Position numbers and translations under genes: made by a program. DNA of 13,568 bases from a virus: IMG/VR virus record IMGVR_UViG_3300037808_001901; one strand, 5' to 3'. Of this stretch, positions 5,500 to 12,569 are shown piece after piece (the first letter of the stretch is position 1; each line of letters starts with the position of its first letter). The notes under the pieces were generated by a model. The model ran no database searches. It had not been told where the DNA came from and saw only the letters and a program-made list of their open reading frames with translations.

Positions 5500-6034
5500 A
5501 TCTCAGTAGCTTTATAACCTGAAACGCATCTTCAAGGGCAGTGTGGGTTACTTCACCCTTAATGCCTGCTCTCTCCATGCATGTCTTTAAGTTAGGAATC
5601 TTTTCATCAACGCTAGGTTGCCAAAAACGCATAGCTGGGTCAATACATCTGTGGGCAAACTGACTTTTATCGAAGTTGGGTAATTTTTTCATGAAATTCA
5701 TATCGAAGCTCATGAAGTTTTTACCAGCTATTGTTGCTTTTTCATCTTCAAAGTGTTTTGCGATCCATAATTGGAAAGCACCAGCCACAGTAGTTATGGG
5801 TTCATATCGCCAACCTTCTGGGCGATGATGTAGTTTGCTGAAGATATCAGCGTGCATGTGAAGAGCATATGGCTCTCCAGAATAATATGGGTGAACCACA
5901 TAACAATGAAAAGTCGGGAGCTTATCGACAGGAGTTTCGTAACTCGTATCGTCAACTACAGCACCGATTTCAATAATTTGGCAATATTCTTCGTCTAAAC
6001 CTGTGGTCTCTAAATCAATTGATACATATTTCAT
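5456..6034 (-). CDS. DEDDh-family 3'-5' exonuclease (DnaQ/RNase T/oligoribonuclease-like)
   Basis: 192 aa. Exo I motif IDLETTGLD occurs within 10 residues of the N-terminus. Exo III motif HTALEDAFQVIKLL (H-x4-D) near the C-terminus. An FD-containing Exo II-like segment lies in between. Confidence 0.75.
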   Translation of the reverse strand: MKYVSIDLETTGLDEEYCQIIEIGAVVDDTSYETPVDKLPTFHCYVVHPYYSGEPYALHMHADIFSKLHHRPEGWRYEPITTVAGAFQLWIAKHFEDEKATIAGKNFMSFDMNFMKKLPNFDKSQFAHRCIDPAMRFWQPSVDEKIPNLKTCMERAGIKGEVTHTALEDAFQVIKLLRYEEINMPSLENVDG

Positions 6035-6300
6035 TATTTCTTCTTTTTATTTTTTCTTTTGGTAAGTTCTTTTTCGAACTTATCAATTATATCTTGATCT
6101 GCTATTTTTTTCAATACTGTTAAAAATAAGGTCAATTCACCGTCTAGCTCTTCTATTTGAAGACCACGTTTATGAATTGTCTTGGCTTGACGAGTTTGAC
6201 AAGCTAAAAGGTCTTTTATAACACCTTGAGGATCGCTTTTGCATCTGCTCTGAAACGGACTTGGATCACTCATCAGCGGTGTCTCCGGTATTACTGGCAT
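6034..6300 (-). CDS. hypothetical protein (88 aa), poly-Lys C-terminus
   Basis: ATG ORF. Its stop is adjacent to the exonuclease start. It overlaps the upstream lipoprotein gene by 35 nt. Confidence 0.4.
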   Translation of the reverse strand: MPVIPETPLMSDPSPFQSRCKSDPQGVIKDLLACQTRQAKTIHKRGLQIEELDGELTLFLTVLKKIADQDIIDKFEKELTKRKNKKKK

Positions 6301-6583: not shown

Positions 6584-7167
6584 ATTGCCTCAAATCGGAA
6601 CATCATTTCGTGTACGATCTTTTGAGGATCGAACATTATGCCAGCGTCATCCATTGTGAATTGTTTGTCCCACTTGTCTGTCGCTTCCCAAGTTGGGTCA
6701 ATAAGCTCAGGCTTATTCTTCTTAACCCATGCCTCTAGGAATTCGCAGTCAGTGTCTTCATCATTGCCAATCGCAGCTTTATCCTTGTAATTCCAAACGT
6801 TGCCTTCTTTGGGAATATACGCTCGGAAAGTTTTACCATCTTGGTCAAGATAAACAATGAACTTAATGGGATATTCCCAATCGCCACCAGCAGACCAGCC
6901 AATGAGAGAGAATTGGGTTAAAGGAGATCGAGTCCAAAAAGTTCGTGGGCCTAAGATGCTACACTCAGCCCCGAATTCTTCGTGATCATAAGAGTAATTC
7001 TCAAAGTCAAATTGGACCTTATCAAGATCACTCTGGAATTTTGGACCTAAGCAGTCGAATTCGTAAGGACTAATCCCTTTGCCGCCAAATTTTTCATGGA
7101 ACATTTCCAAGAGTTGGCTGGGATTAACACGTTTAGTCGAACAGGCTTTACGTCTGGCTTTTGGCAT
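6580..7167 (-). CDS. hypothetical protein (195 aa)
   Basis: ATG ORF. It overlaps the upstream gene by 20 nt. No recognisable motif. Confidence 0.5.
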   Translation of the reverse strand: MPKARRKACSTKRVNPSQLLEMFHEKFGGKGISPYEFDCLGPKFQSDLDKVQFDFENYSYDHEEFGAECSILGPRTFWTRSPLTQFSLIGWSAGGDWEYPIKFIVYLDQDGKTFRAYIPKEGNVWNYKDKAAIGNDEDTDCEFLEAWVKKNKPELIDPTWEATDKWDKQFTMDDAGIMFDPQKIVHEMMFRFEAI

Positions 7168-7756
7168 GAACTTCTTCCCACATTAGGAATGCTTCTGATT
7201 CAAGTGCGTGAATCAAACCTTTTGATTCATCCGTTAACTCTTGTGTGTATTCTGGAAGCACAGATGCGGCTCTTACAAGAGAATGTGATTTTATAACTTC
7301 CTCATTAAAATCGTAGCCCGCTTCACTAAGGAAATGGGCCAAACAATCTCTCAAGTTTTCCGTGGTTCCAACAAGATCACAAACCTCTAACAGCCCTTTG
7401 TATCTGGATGTTAAAAATGGGTGATTCCCGTTGCATTCTCTTTGGGTGACGTTTTCAACAAATCGATTAAGATCGTCACTCCAAGCATCTTCTCCCCAAA
7501 GTCTTGTGCAGAACTTCCTACTTCCGTTCAGGAGATAGAAAGCGTGAAATGATTTGTACCATGCGTGTGGATGGCGAAAGACTGTAGCTGTTAAGAATGC
7601 AGGATCGTTGGTTATTTTCTCAACTGCATCTTCAACATTTTTTCTTTCGAAAAGTTTTCTGAGAACGTGATTAACAAAAGAGCCACCATGTTTTGAAACG
7701 TGGTAGAACTTGAGTCTCTTTCCTTCTTTGAGTGGAGAATAATATCTTACATTCAT
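7148..7756 (-). CDS. putative sulfotransferase-like protein (202 aa)
   Basis: KFYHVSKHGGSF resembles the 5'-phosphosulfate-binding F-x-H-[IV]-P-K-[TS]-G-G-[TS] loop of Sulfotransfer_2-type enzymes. The start is set at the internal ATG 7756 because the longer ORF (to 7798) would run into the tRNA at 7760-7863. The ATG lies 3 nt after the tRNA 3' end. Confidence 0.45.
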   Translation of the reverse strand: MNVRYYSPLKEGKRLKFYHVSKHGGSFVNHVLRKLFERKNVEDAVEKITNDPAFLTATVFRHPHAWYKSFHAFYLLNGSRKFCTRLWGEDAWSDDLNRFVENVTQRECNGNHPFLTSRYKGLLEVCDLVGTTENLRDCLAHFLSEAGYDFNEEVIKSHSLVRAASVLPEYTQELTDESKGLIHALESEAFLMWEEVHAKSQT

Positions 7757-7759
7757 GAG

Positions 7760-7863
7760 TGCCCCTAGCAGGACTCGAACCTGCACGCCTTTCGGCACTA
7801 GTTCCTATCGTAGGGTTGTTTAACCCTTAAAACTAGCGTGTCTGCCAATTCCACCATAGGGGC
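7760..7863 (-). tRNA. tRNA-Leu(TAA), type II, with a 22-nt insertion (intron-like) in the anticodon loop
   Basis: Minus strand: GCCCCTA-TG-GTG-GAATTGGCAGA-CAC-G-CTAGT-[TTTAAG|GGTTAAACAACCCTACGATAGG|A]-ACTAG-TGCCGAAAGGCGT-GCAGG-TTCGAGT-CCTGC-TAGGGGC-A. Perfect 7-bp acceptor, long variable arm, discriminator A, canonical D and T arms. 29 nt lie between the anticodon-stem halves, against the normal 7. Confidence 0.6.
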
Positions 7864-8030: not shown

Positions 8031-8417
8031 TTATTCGTCTAAGGACTCTACTTCCGTGACAAAGTATGTAGTAGCCCCCTTCCAACTTTGAGAACTACGT
8101 TGTTCACGATAGTGTATCTTGACTCGTTTGCCAGAATCCATAGCATCTTCAACTTGCTCAACAACGCTTTCGCCATCTTCGGGCGGATAAACGCTGAACT
8201 CCCATTTTTCACGTTGGCCACCTTGATCGATGGCACCCATAGCAAGTTCGCCTTCCCATGTTTTTACCCAACTCCCTTTGTGAGAGAATTTGACAACAAC
8301 ACCGACTCGGCTACCTTCTGAGTAGGTCCAACCAGCAGACGAAAACCACAAATACACTCCGCCACCTAAGACCCCCACAACCGCAAGAATCATGGCAACT
8401 TTTTTGGCTTTATCCAT
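8031..8417 (-). CDS. membrane-anchored hypothetical protein (128 aa)
   Basis: N-terminal hydrophobic helix (VAMILAVVGVLGGGVYLWF). ATG start. Its ATG shares one nucleotide with the TGA stop of the upstream ORF (TGATG). Confidence 0.55.
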   Translation of the reverse strand: MDKAKKVAMILAVVGVLGGGVYLWFSSAGWTYSEGSRVGVVVKFSHKGSWVKTWEGELAMGAIDQGGQREKWEFSVYPPEDGESVVEQVEDAMDSGKRVKIHYREQRSSQSWKGATTYFVTEVESLDE

Positions 8418-8608
8418 CAGTCAGTCCTTCCATTTAATAAGCGTCCAAGAGACACTCGTTTCCCGGCTTGATTAGTGCTTTCGGGGTATTTTTCTTTTGC
8501 ACAGTCATTATCGCAAAAGAATTTATCCTCTAAAAAGCATCCTGTCCATTCCCAATTGAAGGTACGCCCACAATTGCAACACACCTTCTCAATTATATCC
8601 TCAGCCAT
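8417..8608 (-). CDS. small Cys-rich (zinc-ribbon-like) protein, 63 aa
   Basis: CCNCGRTF..C..C...C pattern. ATG start, about 55 nt downstream of conserved promoter copy 2. Confidence 0.5.
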   Translation of the reverse strand: MAEDIIEKVCCNCGRTFNWEWTGCFLEDKFFCDNDCAKEKYPESTNQAGKRVSLGRLLNGRTD

Positions 8609-8664
8609 TTCGCTTCACTCCATTTAGTGGAGCGAAAGCCCCGGAATCAAATTGTAGGTGCATT

Positions 8665-8695
8665 CCATTGTACGAAAATTTTGGGCAATGTAAAG
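8665..8695 (-). promoter_or_regulatory. conserved sigma70-like promoter motif, copy 2 (minus strand)
   Basis: Minus-strand TTTACA(8694-8689)-16 nt-TACAAT(8672-8667). It shares the CCATTGTACGAAAATTTT..GC.A.GTAAA core with copies 1 and 3. It lies immediately downstream of the terminator at 8697-8736. Confidence 0.55.
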
Positions 8696-8696
8696 C

Positions 8697-8736
8697 AAAA
8701 AAGGAGGGCGAAACAGGTCATTATCCCGTTTCGCCC
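8697..8736 (-). terminator. rho-independent terminator (minus strand)
   Basis: 9-bp stem GGGCGAAAC (8706-8714) / GTTTCGCCC (8728-8736) with a 13-nt loop. On the minus strand it is followed by CTCC and T6 (plus-strand A-run 8697-8702). Confidence 0.6.
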
Positions 8737-8860
8737 AAAAGCGGCAGTTTCTAATTATATTTCAGGACGGTGTATCAGGGGTTTAGCCTCCTGCCGCTTA
8801 CTCGTTACTCGACTTTTATACGAGTGAGTTTAATTTATCGGCCAAACTACCAATACGTGA

Positions 8861-8982
8861 CCCTAGCGATGTTTTTACGGAAAAGATATCGCCAAACCCG
8901 AAGGCATTATAAAATCCTTCATAGCGATGTTTATGTGGGAAATTTAATCGCCAATAAAACCGAAGGCATAACCTTCACTCTA
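8861..8982. repeat. two imperfect ~60-bp tandem units, each containing nested inverted repeats
   Basis: Unit 1 (8861-8920) and unit 2 (8921-8982) each contain tAGCGATGTTT..ATCGCCAA(A/T)..CCGAAGGCAT..CCTTCA. GCGAT/ATCGC and GAAGG/CCTTC inverted repeats give two hairpins per unit. The region is non-coding, in the 3' region of the amidase-like gene and before the 8697-8736 terminator. Confidence 0.5.
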
Positions 8983-8999
8983 TAGTAGTGTTGCTAGTG

Positions 9000-9653
9000 T
9001 CAATCTTCCCACCAAGGACAAAGAACTCTGCTTTTTTTACAAGCATATTGAGAAGTTCTTTGTACCCACACCCAACAAGTGTTGTCATCGCAGTCATTGG
9101 TTAACATCACAGTTTTTCCCTCACTTTTTACAAAGTGAGAAAGTCTTTCTTTGGGATGATAATGGCGATTTAACTTATACATGATGCCCGCAGGGAATTG
9201 TTTACAGGGGTTGCCTCTTAAAGCAATCCCTCCACGCAGCAATGTTCTTGTTGTAAGTTCTCCGCAATGGATTCCTTTGCCAATCTTTCCTCGAAGATAA
9301 CTCCAAATGCTATACTCTCTATCTACTTGGTTTTCCAAGTAAGTACGCATTTTAAGTGCTTCGGCTCTGTTGTACAGAATCTTTGGCTTCATCAGCCATA
9401 TCTTCATTTGACGATTATGTTTTCTGTTGTGATTCTCTATTTCTTTAACATAATCAGAAAGGAGCAGTTTCCTGACCCTTGGAGGCTCAGCCTCATATAC
9501 CCACAGTTCCTCTCCAATATTAAAAAGCATCGCAACATGGGTATAAGGACTATCGGTTTCGTTTTCGACTATCCTATTGCCACCCTCGATAAATAACATT
9601 GTACCATCGGGACAGCTTGCTAATAATGTTGTTGCTAATATAATTGAATACAT
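9000..9653 (-). CDS. predicted lipoprotein, permuted papain-fold amidase/peptidase (YaeF/YiiX-like, C92 family)
   Basis: N-terminus MYSIILATTLLASC carries the lipobox L-A-S-C. YTHVAMLFNIGEE resembles the conserved SHVAIFLGE His segment and IHCGELTTRTL the C[SG]E Cys segment. The His-before-Cys order is typical of permuted NlpC/P60-like YaeF/YiiX lipoproteins. Confidence 0.55.
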   Translation of the reverse strand: MYSIILATTLLASCPDGTMLFIEGGNRIVENETDSPYTHVAMLFNIGEELWVYEAEPPRVRKLLLSDYVKEIENHNRKHNRQMKIWLMKPKILYNRAEALKMRTYLENQVDREYSIWSYLRGKIGKGIHCGELTTRTLLRGGIALRGNPCKQFPAGIMYKLNRHYHPKERLSHFVKSEGKTVMLTNDCDDNTCWVWVQRTSQYACKKSRVLCPWWED

Positions 9654-9777
9654 ATGATAGTTATAACATAGGGATTAACTTTTATTTATCATTTCTGCTG
9701 CCACCATATTGGGAGGAGTAGTGATGGAATATGTCCGCTGGCTGATAAAGCGGGATGGATTGTTTCAGCATCTTCTT

Positions 9778-10113: not shown

Positions 10114-10219
10114 TGTCCAAGGTGGGACTCGAACCCACAAGCCCATTACGGGCGGCAGATTTTAAACGGTGGGTTGACTAACCCATGTCTGCTGTGTTTG
10201 CCAATTTCACCACAAGGAC
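10114..10219 (-). tRNA. type II tRNA-Leu-like gene with a 21-nt anticodon-arm insertion and two T-T mismatches in the acceptor stem (possibly a pseudogene)
   Basis: Minus strand: GTCCTTG-TG-GTG-AAATTGGCAAA-CAC-A-GCAGA-[28 nt: CATGGGTTAGTCAACCCACCGTTTAAAA]-TCTGC-CGCCCGTAATGGGCTT-GTGGG-TTCGAGT-CCCAC-CTTGGAC-A. Removing ATGGGTTAGTCAACCCACCGT leaves the loop CTTAAAA (anticodon TAA). The D-arm is near-identical to the tRNA at 7760-7863. Conserved promoter copy 3 lies 30 nt upstream. Confidence 0.4.
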
Positions 10220-10250: not shown

Positions 10251-10280
10251 CCATTGTACGAAAAAAAATTGCGATGTAAA
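10251..10280 (-). promoter_or_regulatory. conserved sigma70-like promoter motif, copy 3 (minus strand), upstream of the tRNA-like gene
   Basis: Minus-strand TTTACA(10280-10275)-16 nt-TACAAT(10258-10253). It abuts the TAG stop of the XRE-like gene (10282-10284). Confidence 0.55.
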
Positions 10281-11934: not shown

Positions 11935-11970
11935 AAGATCAATATAACATAAATAATCTTATAAGAAAAG

Positions 11971-12059
11971 CGGTGAGGACAGGATTTGAACCTGCGGAGG
12001 GTATTTCACCTCTTCGGTTTTCGAAACCGACGCCTTAAACCAAGCTCAGCCACCTCACC
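11971..12059 (-). tRNA. tRNA-Ser(CGA), type II
   Basis: GGTGAGG-TG-GCT-GAGCTTGGTTTAA-GGC-G-TCGGT-TTCGAAA-ACCGA-long variable arm AGAGGTGAAATACCCTCC-GCAGG-TTCAAAT-CCTGT-CCTCACC-G. Canonical cloverleaf, discriminator G. Confidence 0.8.
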
Positions 12060-12065
12060 GTAAAG

Positions 12066-12145
12066 CGGAAAAGACGGGAATCGAACCCGCATGACCCTTT
12101 CGGGCCAACTTGTTTAGCAAACAAGCCCGGCGACACCACACTTCC
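12066..12145 (-). tRNA. tRNA-Ser(GCT)-like gene with truncated or aberrant D-arm (possible pseudogene)
   Basis: Anticodon arm CTTGT-TTGCTAA-ACAAG, long variable arm GGCCC-GAAA-GGGTC and T arm GCGGG-TTCGATT-CCCGT are intact. Only 13 nt lie between the acceptor and the anticodon stem (about 19 expected). The acceptor stem has one T-T mismatch. Confidence 0.4.
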
Positions 12146-12165
12146 GGCTCTCTTCCAGTGTCAAG

Positions 12166-12249
12166 CGGAGGACACGGGATTTGAACCCGCAAGCCATATT
12201 TCAGACCAACTGCTTTCCAAGCAGTCCGCTAACCGTTCGCTTATCCTCC
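12166..12249 (-). tRNA. tRNA-Ser(GGA)-like gene with non-pairing D-stem (possible pseudogene)
   Basis: Acceptor GGAGGAT/GTCCTCC, anticodon arm ACTGC-TTGGAAA-GCAGT and T arm GCGGG-TTCAAAT-CCCGT are present. The D region AAGCGAACGGTTAGCGG contains a direct repeat (AGCG..AGCG) rather than complementary halves. The variable arm is poorly paired. Confidence 0.4.
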
Positions 12250-12319
12250 ATTATGATGGCTGCAACTCAGGGACTTTTAGCCCGCAGCAGGGTAGTCTTA
12301 TTCCTGAGCAATCATCAAG

Positions 12320-12400
12320 TACCCGTGGCGAGAGTCGAACTCGCAAGCCTTGCGGCACCAGATTCTAAGTCTGGCGTGTTTACCGTTTCACCACACGGGC
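12320..12400 (-). tRNA. tRNA-Leu(TAG), type II
   Basis: GCCCGTG-TG-GTG-AAACGGTAAA-CAC-G-CCAGA-CTTAGAA-TCTGG-TGCCGCAAGGCTT-GCGAG-TTCGACT-CTCGC-CACGGGT-A. Canonical cloverleaf, G1-T72 wobble, discriminator A. Confidence 0.8.
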
Positions 12401-12404
12401 ATAG

Positions 12405-12478
12405 TAGCACTGGTCGGAGTCGAACCGACAAACACTTAGTTTTAAGCTAAGCCGCTTTGCCAATTAGCGTACAGTGCC
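12405..12478 (-). tRNA. type I (short variable arm) tRNA with anticodon TAA (Leu by anticodon)
   Basis: GGCACTG-TA-CGC-TAATTGGCAAA-GCG-G-CTTAG-CTTAAAA-CTAAG-TGTTT-GTCGG-TTCGACT-CCGAC-CAGTGCT-A. Canonical 74-nt cloverleaf, discriminator A. 5-nt variable loop, which is unusual for a Leu decoder. Confidence 0.6.
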
Positions 12479-12484
12479 AAAAAG

Positions 12485-12564
12485 TAGCCTTGGTGGGAGT
12501 CGAACCCACAAAATCACCAGATTCTAAATCTAGCCGCTTTGCCATTAGGTTTGCGTACAAGGCC
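12485..12564 (-). tRNA. type I tRNA with anticodon TAG (Leu by anticodon), long D-loop
   Basis: GGCCTTG-TA-CGC-AAACCTAATGGCAAA-GCG-G-CTAGA-TTTAGAA-TCTGG-TGATTTT-GTGGG-TTCGACT-CCCAC-CAAGGCT-A. 15-nt D-loop and 7-nt variable loop. Discriminator A. Confidence 0.5.
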
Positions 12565-12569
12565 ATAAG

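Follow-up and report, generated by a model that had tools for sequence, protein, structure and literature searches.

What is encoded in the gene-free stretch behind an amidase-like gene in the viral sequence IMGVR_UViG_3300037808_001901 (IMG/VR; 13,568 nucleotides [nt], analyzed at full length and referred to here as the window)? A first-pass annotation, made from the letters of the sequence, had marked two tandem units of about 60 bp with two hairpins each at 8741-8999, and had offered an operator or iteron array, a small RNA (sRNA), or an element of the 3′ untranslated region (3′ UTR) as explanations. The units are real, and the element to which they belong is larger than described. It spans ~290 nt of the minus strand, from 8989 to 8697, between the stop codon of the amidase gene and a strong intrinsic terminator. 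The two units make up its 5′ part, and the remainder holds three more helices, a 9-bp stem domain, and the terminator. Very probably, this element is a functional structured RNA of the minus strand. From sequence comparison, we suggest that the tandem units are the 5′ half of one conserved structured RNA that would act in trans as a stable RNA, a reading to which we assign a probability of about 0.55.

Conservation and covariation of the element

We compared the locus with contigs carrying homologs of the amidase protein at 64-85% identity, all from marine metagenomes. Together with the window, they represent eight lineages (the window, L009/L010, L011, L012/L036, L015, L018, L019 [partial], and L020/L021). 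Copies on contigs with an identical amidase were 100% identical and thus uninformative. In every relative fetched, 370-500 nt without a gene follow the amidase gene, and the sequences of these gaps align from the box ACTACTATAG through the terminator, which is followed in all of them by the promoter TTTACA-N16-TACAAT. The element follows the amidase gene in every lineage with an amidase 64-100% identical to that of the window. Compared with the window, the element is 70-93% identical in nucleotide sequence, its 3′ 195 nt are 80-96% identical, and the amidase coding sequence (CDS) is 64-85% identical. Because the identity of the element exceeds that of the CDS, the non-coding stretch is more constrained than the adjacent gene.

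The number of units differs between lineages. Two are present in the window, L009, L011, and L012; L015 and L020 have two copies of the second hairpin (P2) and one of the first (P1), or 1.5 units; L018 and L019 have one. Judged from these alignments, the tandem pair is a module duplication shared by some lineages rather than a fixed feature, since unit number is not constant. Two independent short assemblies (L007 and L008) both end exactly 126 nt past the amidase stop codon, inside unit B, which probably reflects an assembly break caused by the tandem units.

In the window, the units lie head to tail with no spacer between them, 58-62 nt apart, and are 76-93% identical to each other in three blocks (8864-8884/8922-8942, 8879-8895/8938-8954, and 8894-8907/8956-8969). 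Each consists of two hairpins: P1, GAAGG/CCTTC, with a loop of 5 nt in one unit and 11 nt in the other, and P2, GCGAT...ATCGC, for which the 6-bp pairing UGGCGA/UCGCUA is the better register; a linker of 7-10 nt separates the two. The loops of P1 vary freely from 4 to 11 nt across lineages, and the apical sequence of P2, UCUUUUCC-NN-AAAA(A)C, hardly changes in either unit in any lineage. Ahead of the units, the 5′ box is part of a conserved stretch of ~20 nt, R-TTAT-S-AA-Y-ACTACTATAG, that lies between the amidase stop codon and the first hairpin. RNAalifold pairs the 3′ half of this box with the U-rich linker, without covariation support.

Behind the units, P3 is weakly supported, with a single U·G to C-G change seen. 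The 9-bp inverted repeat of the first-pass annotation, AAGCGGCAG/CTGCCGCTT, is perfect and forms the stem of P5, with its left arm at 8739-8747 and not at 8742-8750. The 43-nt interior of P5 contains the invariant segments CAGGAGG (resembling a Shine-Dalgarno [SD] sequence), CCCUGAU, and GAARUA, and has no consensus secondary structure. The terminator is present as well: a G+C-rich stem at 8706-8736 precedes UCCUUUUUU at 8705-8697, with a U6 tail on the transcribed strand. Coordinates of all features are collected in Table 1.

Covariation was counted in an arms-only alignment in which loops were replaced by a fixed spacer; the register of unit A in L020 was picked for best pairing. In this alignment, 95.8% of the P1 and P2 cells pair, and 7 of the 12 pairs show compensatory double changes. 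P1 reads GAAGG/CCUUC in most cases, GGAGG/CCUCC in L015 and L020, and GAGGG/CCCUC in L019, with GAAGA/UCUUC and GAAGG/CUUUC in unit B of L011 and L012, respectively. Likewise, P2 reads UGGCGA/UCGCUA in most cases, UGACGG/CCGUUA in unit A of L012 (two compensatory pairs), and UGCAGC/GUUGCA in unit A of L020. None of 500 shuffles matched P1 and P2 on any of five pairing measures, and sliding one partner by 1-3 columns reduced pairing to 27-44%. The comparison with relatives, which had been set beforehand as the test that could refute the hairpins, thus found them conserved with compensatory changes.

Among the pairs of the P1 and P2 stems, 13 are G·U, and A·C mismatches are absent; in the terminator, relatives show a single compensatory change from C-G to U-A, together with several G·U variants. 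These patterns indicate that structure is selected in the minus-strand (gene-sense) RNA, and not in duplex DNA or in an antisense transcript. Structure prediction agrees. The minus strand folds better than its shuffles (z = -3.1 in the window; -3.9 and -2.7 in two relatives), which, together with the covariation, places the features described beyond chance. The single-sequence minimum free energy (MFE) fold recovers P1, P2, P3, P5, and the terminator, and the relatives fold into the same helices.

The same observations bear on the proposal that the units are protein-binding sites in DNA, such as an array of operators or iterons, or a signal for replication or packaging. Dyad symmetry is repeated in tandem here, and sequence is invariant in the P5 stem, in the terminator, and in the promoter region, as might be expected of such sites. 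However, the stems of P1 and P2 vary while keeping their pairing, which a DNA-binding protein would not select, and the wobble pairs are specific to one strand. In addition, a whole unit is dispensable in L018 and L019, as is half a unit in L015 and L020, and the motif has no other copies in the 1.6 Mb of sequence compared. We therefore regard a DNA-level function as highly improbable; of the classes first proposed, the sRNA and 3′ UTR elements stand, and the operator or iteron array does not.

Table 1. Positions of the element, its parts, and neighboring features in the window
Feature	Position	Strand	Remarks
5′ box ACUACUAUAG	8980-8989	minus	Conserved in 8/8 lineages; contains -10-like TACTAT
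P1a, hairpin 1 of unit A, UGAAGG-UUAUG-CCUUCG	8961-8977	minus	GGAGG/CCUCC in L015, L020
P2a, hairpin 2 of unit A, UGGCGA...UCGCUA	8922-8953	minus	Conserved apical region UUUCCCACAUAAA
P1b, hairpin 1 of unit B, UGAAGG-AUUUUAUAAUG-CCUUCG	8899-8921	minus	Missing in L015 and L020
P2b, hairpin 2 of unit B, UGGCGA-UAUCUUUUCCGUAAAAACA-UCGCUA	8864-8894	minus	Apical UCUUUUCC-NN-AAAA nearly invariant
P3, short hairpin AUUGG-UAGUUUGG-CCGAU	8837-8854	minus	Within conserved CGCUAGGGUCACGUAUUGGUAG; RNAalifold
P4, hairpin CUCG-loop-CGAG	8808-8824	minus	Stem invariant; loop of 9, 8, or 6 nt by lineage
P5 domain, 9-bp stem AAGCGGCAG/CUGCCGCUU	8739-8799	minus	Stem invariant; encloses 43-nt interior
Intrinsic terminator	8697-8736	minus	12-bp stem (8 G-C), 7-nt loop, then UCCUUUUUU; ends RNA
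Sigma-70-type promoter TTTACA-N16-TACAAT	8667-8694	minus	Directly after terminator; for next operon, outside RNA
Second copy, same promoter type	10253-10280	minus	Ahead of tRNA-like gene, 105-aa open reading frame, and amidase gene
C92/YiiX-like permuted papain-fold amidase gene, 217 aa	9000-9653	minus	Upstream of RNA; stop codon 9000-9002
Vault-like protein gene, 896 aa	1799-4489	minus	Pfam MVP_shoulder and Vault_3 matches (major-vault-protein-like)
tRNA-Leu(UAA)-like gene, 104 nt	7760-7863	minus	Rfam tRNA, 47 bits; missed by ARAGORN
Second tRNA-like gene, like design	10114-10219	minus	Class II variable arm; 21 bits, below Rfam threshold

Coding potential, known families, and distribution

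As the first-pass annotation had held, the region contains no credible open reading frame (ORF). Two ORFs can be called mechanically on the plus strand (8627-8827 and 8770-8985), and no reading frame is conserved on either strand in the relatives, in which frames and lengths differ and 1-nt indels occur. The units themselves could be read as two tiny tandem genes, each an ORF of 15 codons (MKVMPSVLLAIKFPT and MKDFIMPSGLAISFP) in a shared register, a reading to which indels between the units in multiples of 3 lend some appeal. The relatives refute it: in L012, the ORF is interrupted by a stop at codon 4 (ATG AAG GTT TAA), and the ORF is missing from unit B of L015 and L020. Moreover, no SD sequence precedes the ORFs, and conservation runs past their stop codons. 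We give this explanation practically no weight.

To known RNA families, the region has no match. The Rfam 15 library used (4,227 models) includes riboswitches, T-box, ribozymes, tmRNA, RNase P, and 6S, as well as GOLLD, ROOL, HEARO, raiA, c4, and pRNA. At the gathering threshold, only tRNAs were found in the whole window. With E values up to 10, two noise matches (16.5 and 11.6 bits) were obtained in 8550-9100, and four relatives searched at E values up to 5 yielded no match within the RNA. ARAGORN predicted no tRNA or tmRNA in 8600-9000, where the tRNA model RF00005 was unmatched even at E values up to 10. We also considered repeats of other kinds. A CRISPR array or solitary repeat was rejected because the units abut without spacers and differ from each other. 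A dispersed repeat was rejected because the P2 module and the 3′ domain occur at this locus only, once per genome stretch, in the 1.6 Mb of sequence compared.

Amidase homologs at 50% identity, found by a profile scan of IMG/VR (L051 and L052), lack the RNA, as do contigs with homologs of the 128-aa protein encoded downstream of the element in other genomic contexts, which argues for an element specific to one clade among the matches listed. Single-protein scans of IMG/VR found no relative, and a search there for the 9-bp-stem domain by its exact DNA pattern gave 0 matches; a relaxed pattern gave more than 120 matches, all of them chance-like. Among species-representative genomes, no protein relatives were found, and the 13 matches to the DNA pattern were all due to chance or unrelated. 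A pattern scan of metagenomes returned the same clade, along with GC-rich chance matches. Positions 8400-9700 were unmatched in GenBank phages by either megablast or blastn, and a literature search returned no description of the element. The element is therefore new at the family level, with no searchable model, paper, or database record that describes it.

Two sets of hairpins came to light during these searches. In freshwater phage-like contigs with tRNA arrays (L048, 1778-1925; also L045), a hairpin with the 9-bp stem of P5 and GGAGG follows a tRNA-Ser gene. We rejected it as a homolog because its score, 20.7 bits, is at the level of pattern-selected chance matches. It precedes an undetected tRNA-like element whose acceptor stem has 8 bp, and which has a CUGUAAA loop and the T-arm GGUUCAAUUCC. 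Separately, contigs of Clostridiales metagenome-assembled genomes (L173, 518-577; L175, 4373-4425; L178, 6230-6282) share a recurring hairpin of ~55 nt, AAAGCGGCAGGAGGCUGA-ACUUACUCGUUGCGUAAGU-GAUGCCGACUGCCGCUU, with an internal CUGA/UGAUG motif that resembles a kink-turn (C/D-box-like). This hairpin has no Rfam match and is probably unrelated to the phage RNA.

Operon context and proposed function

No terminator lies between the amidase stop codon and the RNA on the minus strand, so the region does belong to the 3′ tail of the amidase transcription unit. A terminator after the RNA and then a fresh promoter make the RNA the last element of its operon, and its position on the sense strand, from the stop codon at 9000-9002 to the terminator, is that of an operon-terminal sRNA. 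The two TTTACA-N16-TACAAT promoters (Table 1) share TTTTCGTACAAT, with TTTTCG directly before the -10 hexamer. Both positions are kept in all relatives, with 0.01 expected by chance in the window, and the two copies are probably early promoters that bound two short operons. The hexamer TACTAT, present in the 5′ box, also occurs as the -10 sequence of a promoter, TTGCAT-N17-TGATACTAT, that precedes the tRNA array in relatives.

An element that shares a transcript with the amidase gene could act in cis, as a 3′ UTR element that protects against 3′ exonucleases, directs processing, or allows nut/put-like read-through of the terminator. Neither a terminator nor a canonical promoter separates the gene from the element, and two hairpins per ~60-nt unit before a terminator recall HK022 put. 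In our own comparison, UCUUUUCC..ACAA is faintly like boxA GCUCUUUAACAA. P1a together with the GGUUUUAUU behind it is scored as a weak terminator. However, simple stabilizers need neither 290 nt nor invariant loops nor conservation above that of the CDS, and a put/nut role does not account for the conserved 130-nt 3′ domain. The likeness to boxA is poor, and the sequence concerned sits in a hairpin apex. The downstream operon also has its own strong, conserved promoter, so read-through control is unneeded. We consider a cis-acting role unlikely, although it deserves consideration.

The same promoter is also an argument against control of the downstream genes by a riboswitch or antiterminator. 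In such a leader or attenuator, the terminator would gate the genes for the 63-aa and 128-aa proteins that follow it. A complex conserved fold that directly precedes a terminator and two genes would suit this role, and a candidate helix between the linker of unit B and the interior of P5 would make a compact junction. Nevertheless, the conserved promoter stands between the terminator and these genes, and no alternative pairing to the 5′ arm of the terminator was found in the MFE or consensus folds. Riboswitch and T-box models were unmatched even at E values up to 10, and the downstream gene varies by lineage, with the 63-aa gene absent in L012 and L015. A riboswitch is thus very unlikely.

A third possibility is that the 3′ UTR releases an sRNA that acts by base pairing, in which the U/C-rich loops of P2 (CUUUUCC) would serve as seeds for purine-rich ribosome-binding sites (RBSs) on mRNAs of the host or the phage, aided by the U-rich tail in the manner of Hfq- or ProQ-type sRNAs. 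A repeated, invariant single-stranded motif in hairpin apices and the U6 tail of the terminator are in keeping with this idea, as is a perfect 9-nt complement, GGAAAAGAU, at the RBS of the ORF at 6034-6300 in the window and in L009. However, the complementarity is gone at the orthologous RBS in L015 and L018, even though the loops are kept, so the 9-nt match is probably due to chance. No other targets were found in the window, and a large invariant 3′ domain is atypical of a simple seed-type sRNA. We judge this explanation improbable.

Our preferred explanation, a trans-acting stable RNA, builds on the layout of the element: one or two two-hairpin modules followed by a nearly invariant 3′ domain that consists of P3, P4, and P5 with its 43-nt interior. 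Within the module, P1 is free in sequence and keeps its pairing, and P2 presents an almost invariant apical sequence. Invariant loops and an unstructured P5 interior, set against drifting stems, are the pattern expected for recognition by a partner. Taken together with the variable number of modules and with conservation above that of the neighboring proteins, they suggest that the RNA is bound by a conserved protein or by the translation apparatus, and does not simply protect an mRNA.

The RNA would form the 3′ end of the transcript of the operon, or would be started by a weak promoter with only a -10 sequence (TACTAT in the 5′ box), and would then accumulate because its structure and terminator protect it. 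The invariant single-stranded parts, namely the apical loops of P2 and the interior of P5, would serve as recognition surfaces in trans, with the stems only holding them in place. The likeliest partner would be an RNA-binding protein of the host or phage, or the translation machinery, for which the RNA may be a ribonucleoprotein (RNP) scaffold or a decoy; the copy number of the module would then tune the number of binding sites. We propose this RNP or decoy mechanism tentatively, at somewhat less than even odds.

Long-range pairing within the RNA was considered as well. A 9-bp complementarity between the linker of unit B (GGGUUUGGC) and the interior of P5 (GCUAAACCC) forms a candidate long-range helix. 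Pairing of UAGGG with the 3′ tail or with the interior of P5 was rejected because it is broken in L011 and L018. Four contigs without the RNA (L186, L187, L189, and L052), fetched via homologs of the 128-aa and amidase proteins of the window, use CAGGAGGC as the ribosome-binding sequence before genes, which makes the corresponding sequence in the P5 interior an SD look-alike. The 3′ tail of the RNA, CCCUCCUUUUUU, is complementary to this look-alike.

Several points weigh against the trans-acting reading. A canonical promoter for the RNA itself was not found in the region of the 5′ box, which lacks a -35 sequence; the 5′ end of the RNA is putative, and its stability is presumed. P3, P4, and P5 show no significant covariation across the eight lineages. 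For the candidate helix between linker B and the interior of P5, pairing across lineages reaches 88.9%, yet 148 of 500 shuffles do equally well, so it stays a candidate only. For all four helices, the lack of significant covariation is explained by sequences that barely vary. The invariance of the P5 stem and the terminator could instead reflect constraint on the DNA near the downstream promoter. Furthermore, the eight lineages belong to one phage clade, and their relatedness inflates the apparent support. As for the partner, the neighboring S4-domain protein is only a guess.

A bolder version, which we think has a low probability, is that the RNA represents a new compactly folded class within the gene set with which huge marine phages take over translation. 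Huge phages carry many translation-related genes, whereas to our knowledge almost nothing has been reported on their non-coding RNAs. The companions of the RNA in such a set would be the tRNA array, a tRNA synthetase in relatives, the S4-domain protein, and RNase T. The 9-bp-stem domain presents the SD-like CAGGAGG, and the U/C-rich loops and the CCCUCCUUUUUU tail are anti-SD-like. With these features, the RNA may bind to the 30S subunit or to an mRNA initiation region, or imitate part of one of them, and redirect or titrate the translation or RNA-decay machinery of the host. Alternatively, the fold could be that of a new ribozyme or ligand-binding RNA.

Whichever role applies, the element is a well-delimited orphan RNA, bounded by the 5′ box and the terminator, with solid covariation in a repeated module, and is a candidate for a new Rfam family. 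Its modular design is unusual and comes from a poorly explored group of large marine phages. If the RNA does target host translation or RNA turnover, it would be an RNA-based addition to the takeover strategies of large phages. If it merely stabilizes a 3′ end, it would be ordinary in function, though unusually elaborate.

Genomic setting and comparison with known systems

The window appears to come from a large phage genome. The minus strand carries nearly every ORF, ARAGORN predicts 11 tRNA genes at 11970-13553, and the sequence is also present on metagenomic contigs of up to 196 kb. Genes of the window encode a cobalamin adenosyltransferase, an S4-domain protein, an S24 peptidase domain, RNase T, and a phosphoribosyltransferase. 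The vault-like protein is kept in all relatives at 886-927 aa; its sole relatives in GenBank phages, at 39% identity, are from uncultured phages of 462-735 kb (LR756500, LR756501, and LR756503). In the closest relatives of the window, a gene for a 411-aa protein resembling class I aminoacyl-tRNA synthetases lies upstream of the S24 and adenosyltransferase genes (L009, 2005-3240; L010, 808-2043). The window lineage is without this gene.

The two tRNA-like genes are unusual. The anticodon loop of the tRNA-Leu(UAA)-like gene has an insertion of ~24 nt right after UUUAA, with a hairpin GGGUUAAACAACCC. Short and intron-like, the insertion lies where tRNA introns usually do, an unusual arrangement for tRNAs of phages or bacteria. 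This gene overlaps the listed start of the ORF at 7148-7798, and matches of 104-106 nt are present in four relatives (L020, 2449-2552; L018, 4879-4983; L032, 1012-1115; L036, 732-835). The second gene, directly behind the promoter at 10280-10253, has an anticodon-loop insertion of ~27 nt with a hairpin GGGUUAGUCAACCC and two U·U mismatches in the acceptor stem. Its opposite strand reads as an ORF starting MSSLLRCPRWDSNPQ, and its counterparts in L020 (537-642) and L032 (3850-3955) exceed the Rfam threshold. Within the tRNA array, Tandem Repeats Finder reported three 83-nt units at 73% identity on the minus strand (12403-12644). These units are adjacent tRNA-Leu genes, so the array grew partly by local duplication.

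How does the element compare with RNAs already described? The order of tandem direct RNA repeats, an intrinsic terminator, and downstream genes is shared with antitoxin RNAs of type III toxin-antitoxin (TA) systems (ToxI-like), which are tandem repeats. Unlike in ToxI, the repeats here are ~76-93% alike in blocks only and go down to a single unit, and a promoter follows the terminator. The 63-aa and 128-aa downstream proteins have no Pfam, PADLOC, or NCBIfam nuclease match, including to ToxN-type nucleases, and PADLOC found no defense or TA match in the context of the RNA. Lacking both near-identical repeats and a co-transcribed downstream nuclease, the element was rejected as a ToxI-like antitoxin.

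HK022 put and lambda nut likewise have two adjacent hairpins over ~60 nt in a phage operon, upstream of a terminator. The window RNA differs from them in its linker of 7-10 nt, its weak boxA likeness, its extra conserved domain of 130 nt, and the downstream operon's own promoter.

CsrB and RsmZ are multi-hairpin RNAs that act as protein sponges through the motif A(N)GGA. As in these RNAs, hairpins with the same short apical motif are repeated in the window RNA, and their copy number varies among relatives. In contrast, the motif is UCUUUUCC-NN-AAAA, is present in only one or two copies, and is accompanied by a large non-repetitive 3′ domain.

CpxQ, SroC, and DapZ are 3′-UTR-derived sRNAs of enterobacteria that share the terminator of the upstream mRNA. 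The window RNA resembles them in lying between a stop codon and an intrinsic terminator, in having no canonical promoter of its own, and in its U-rich 3′ tail. Known so far as a sequence, it is much longer and more structured than they are.

GOLLD and ROOL, orphan phage RNAs encoded close to tRNA arrays (PMC12286853), share with the window RNA an origin in phage-like elements, a tRNA-rich region, many helices, and conservation above that of neighboring proteins. The window RNA matches neither family in Rfam and measures ~290 nt against their ~580-800 nt. Its modular repeat varies in copy number, and it is known here from its sequence rather than as an oligomeric cage. By kind, the element joins the orphan structured RNAs of phages and the operon-terminal sRNAs.

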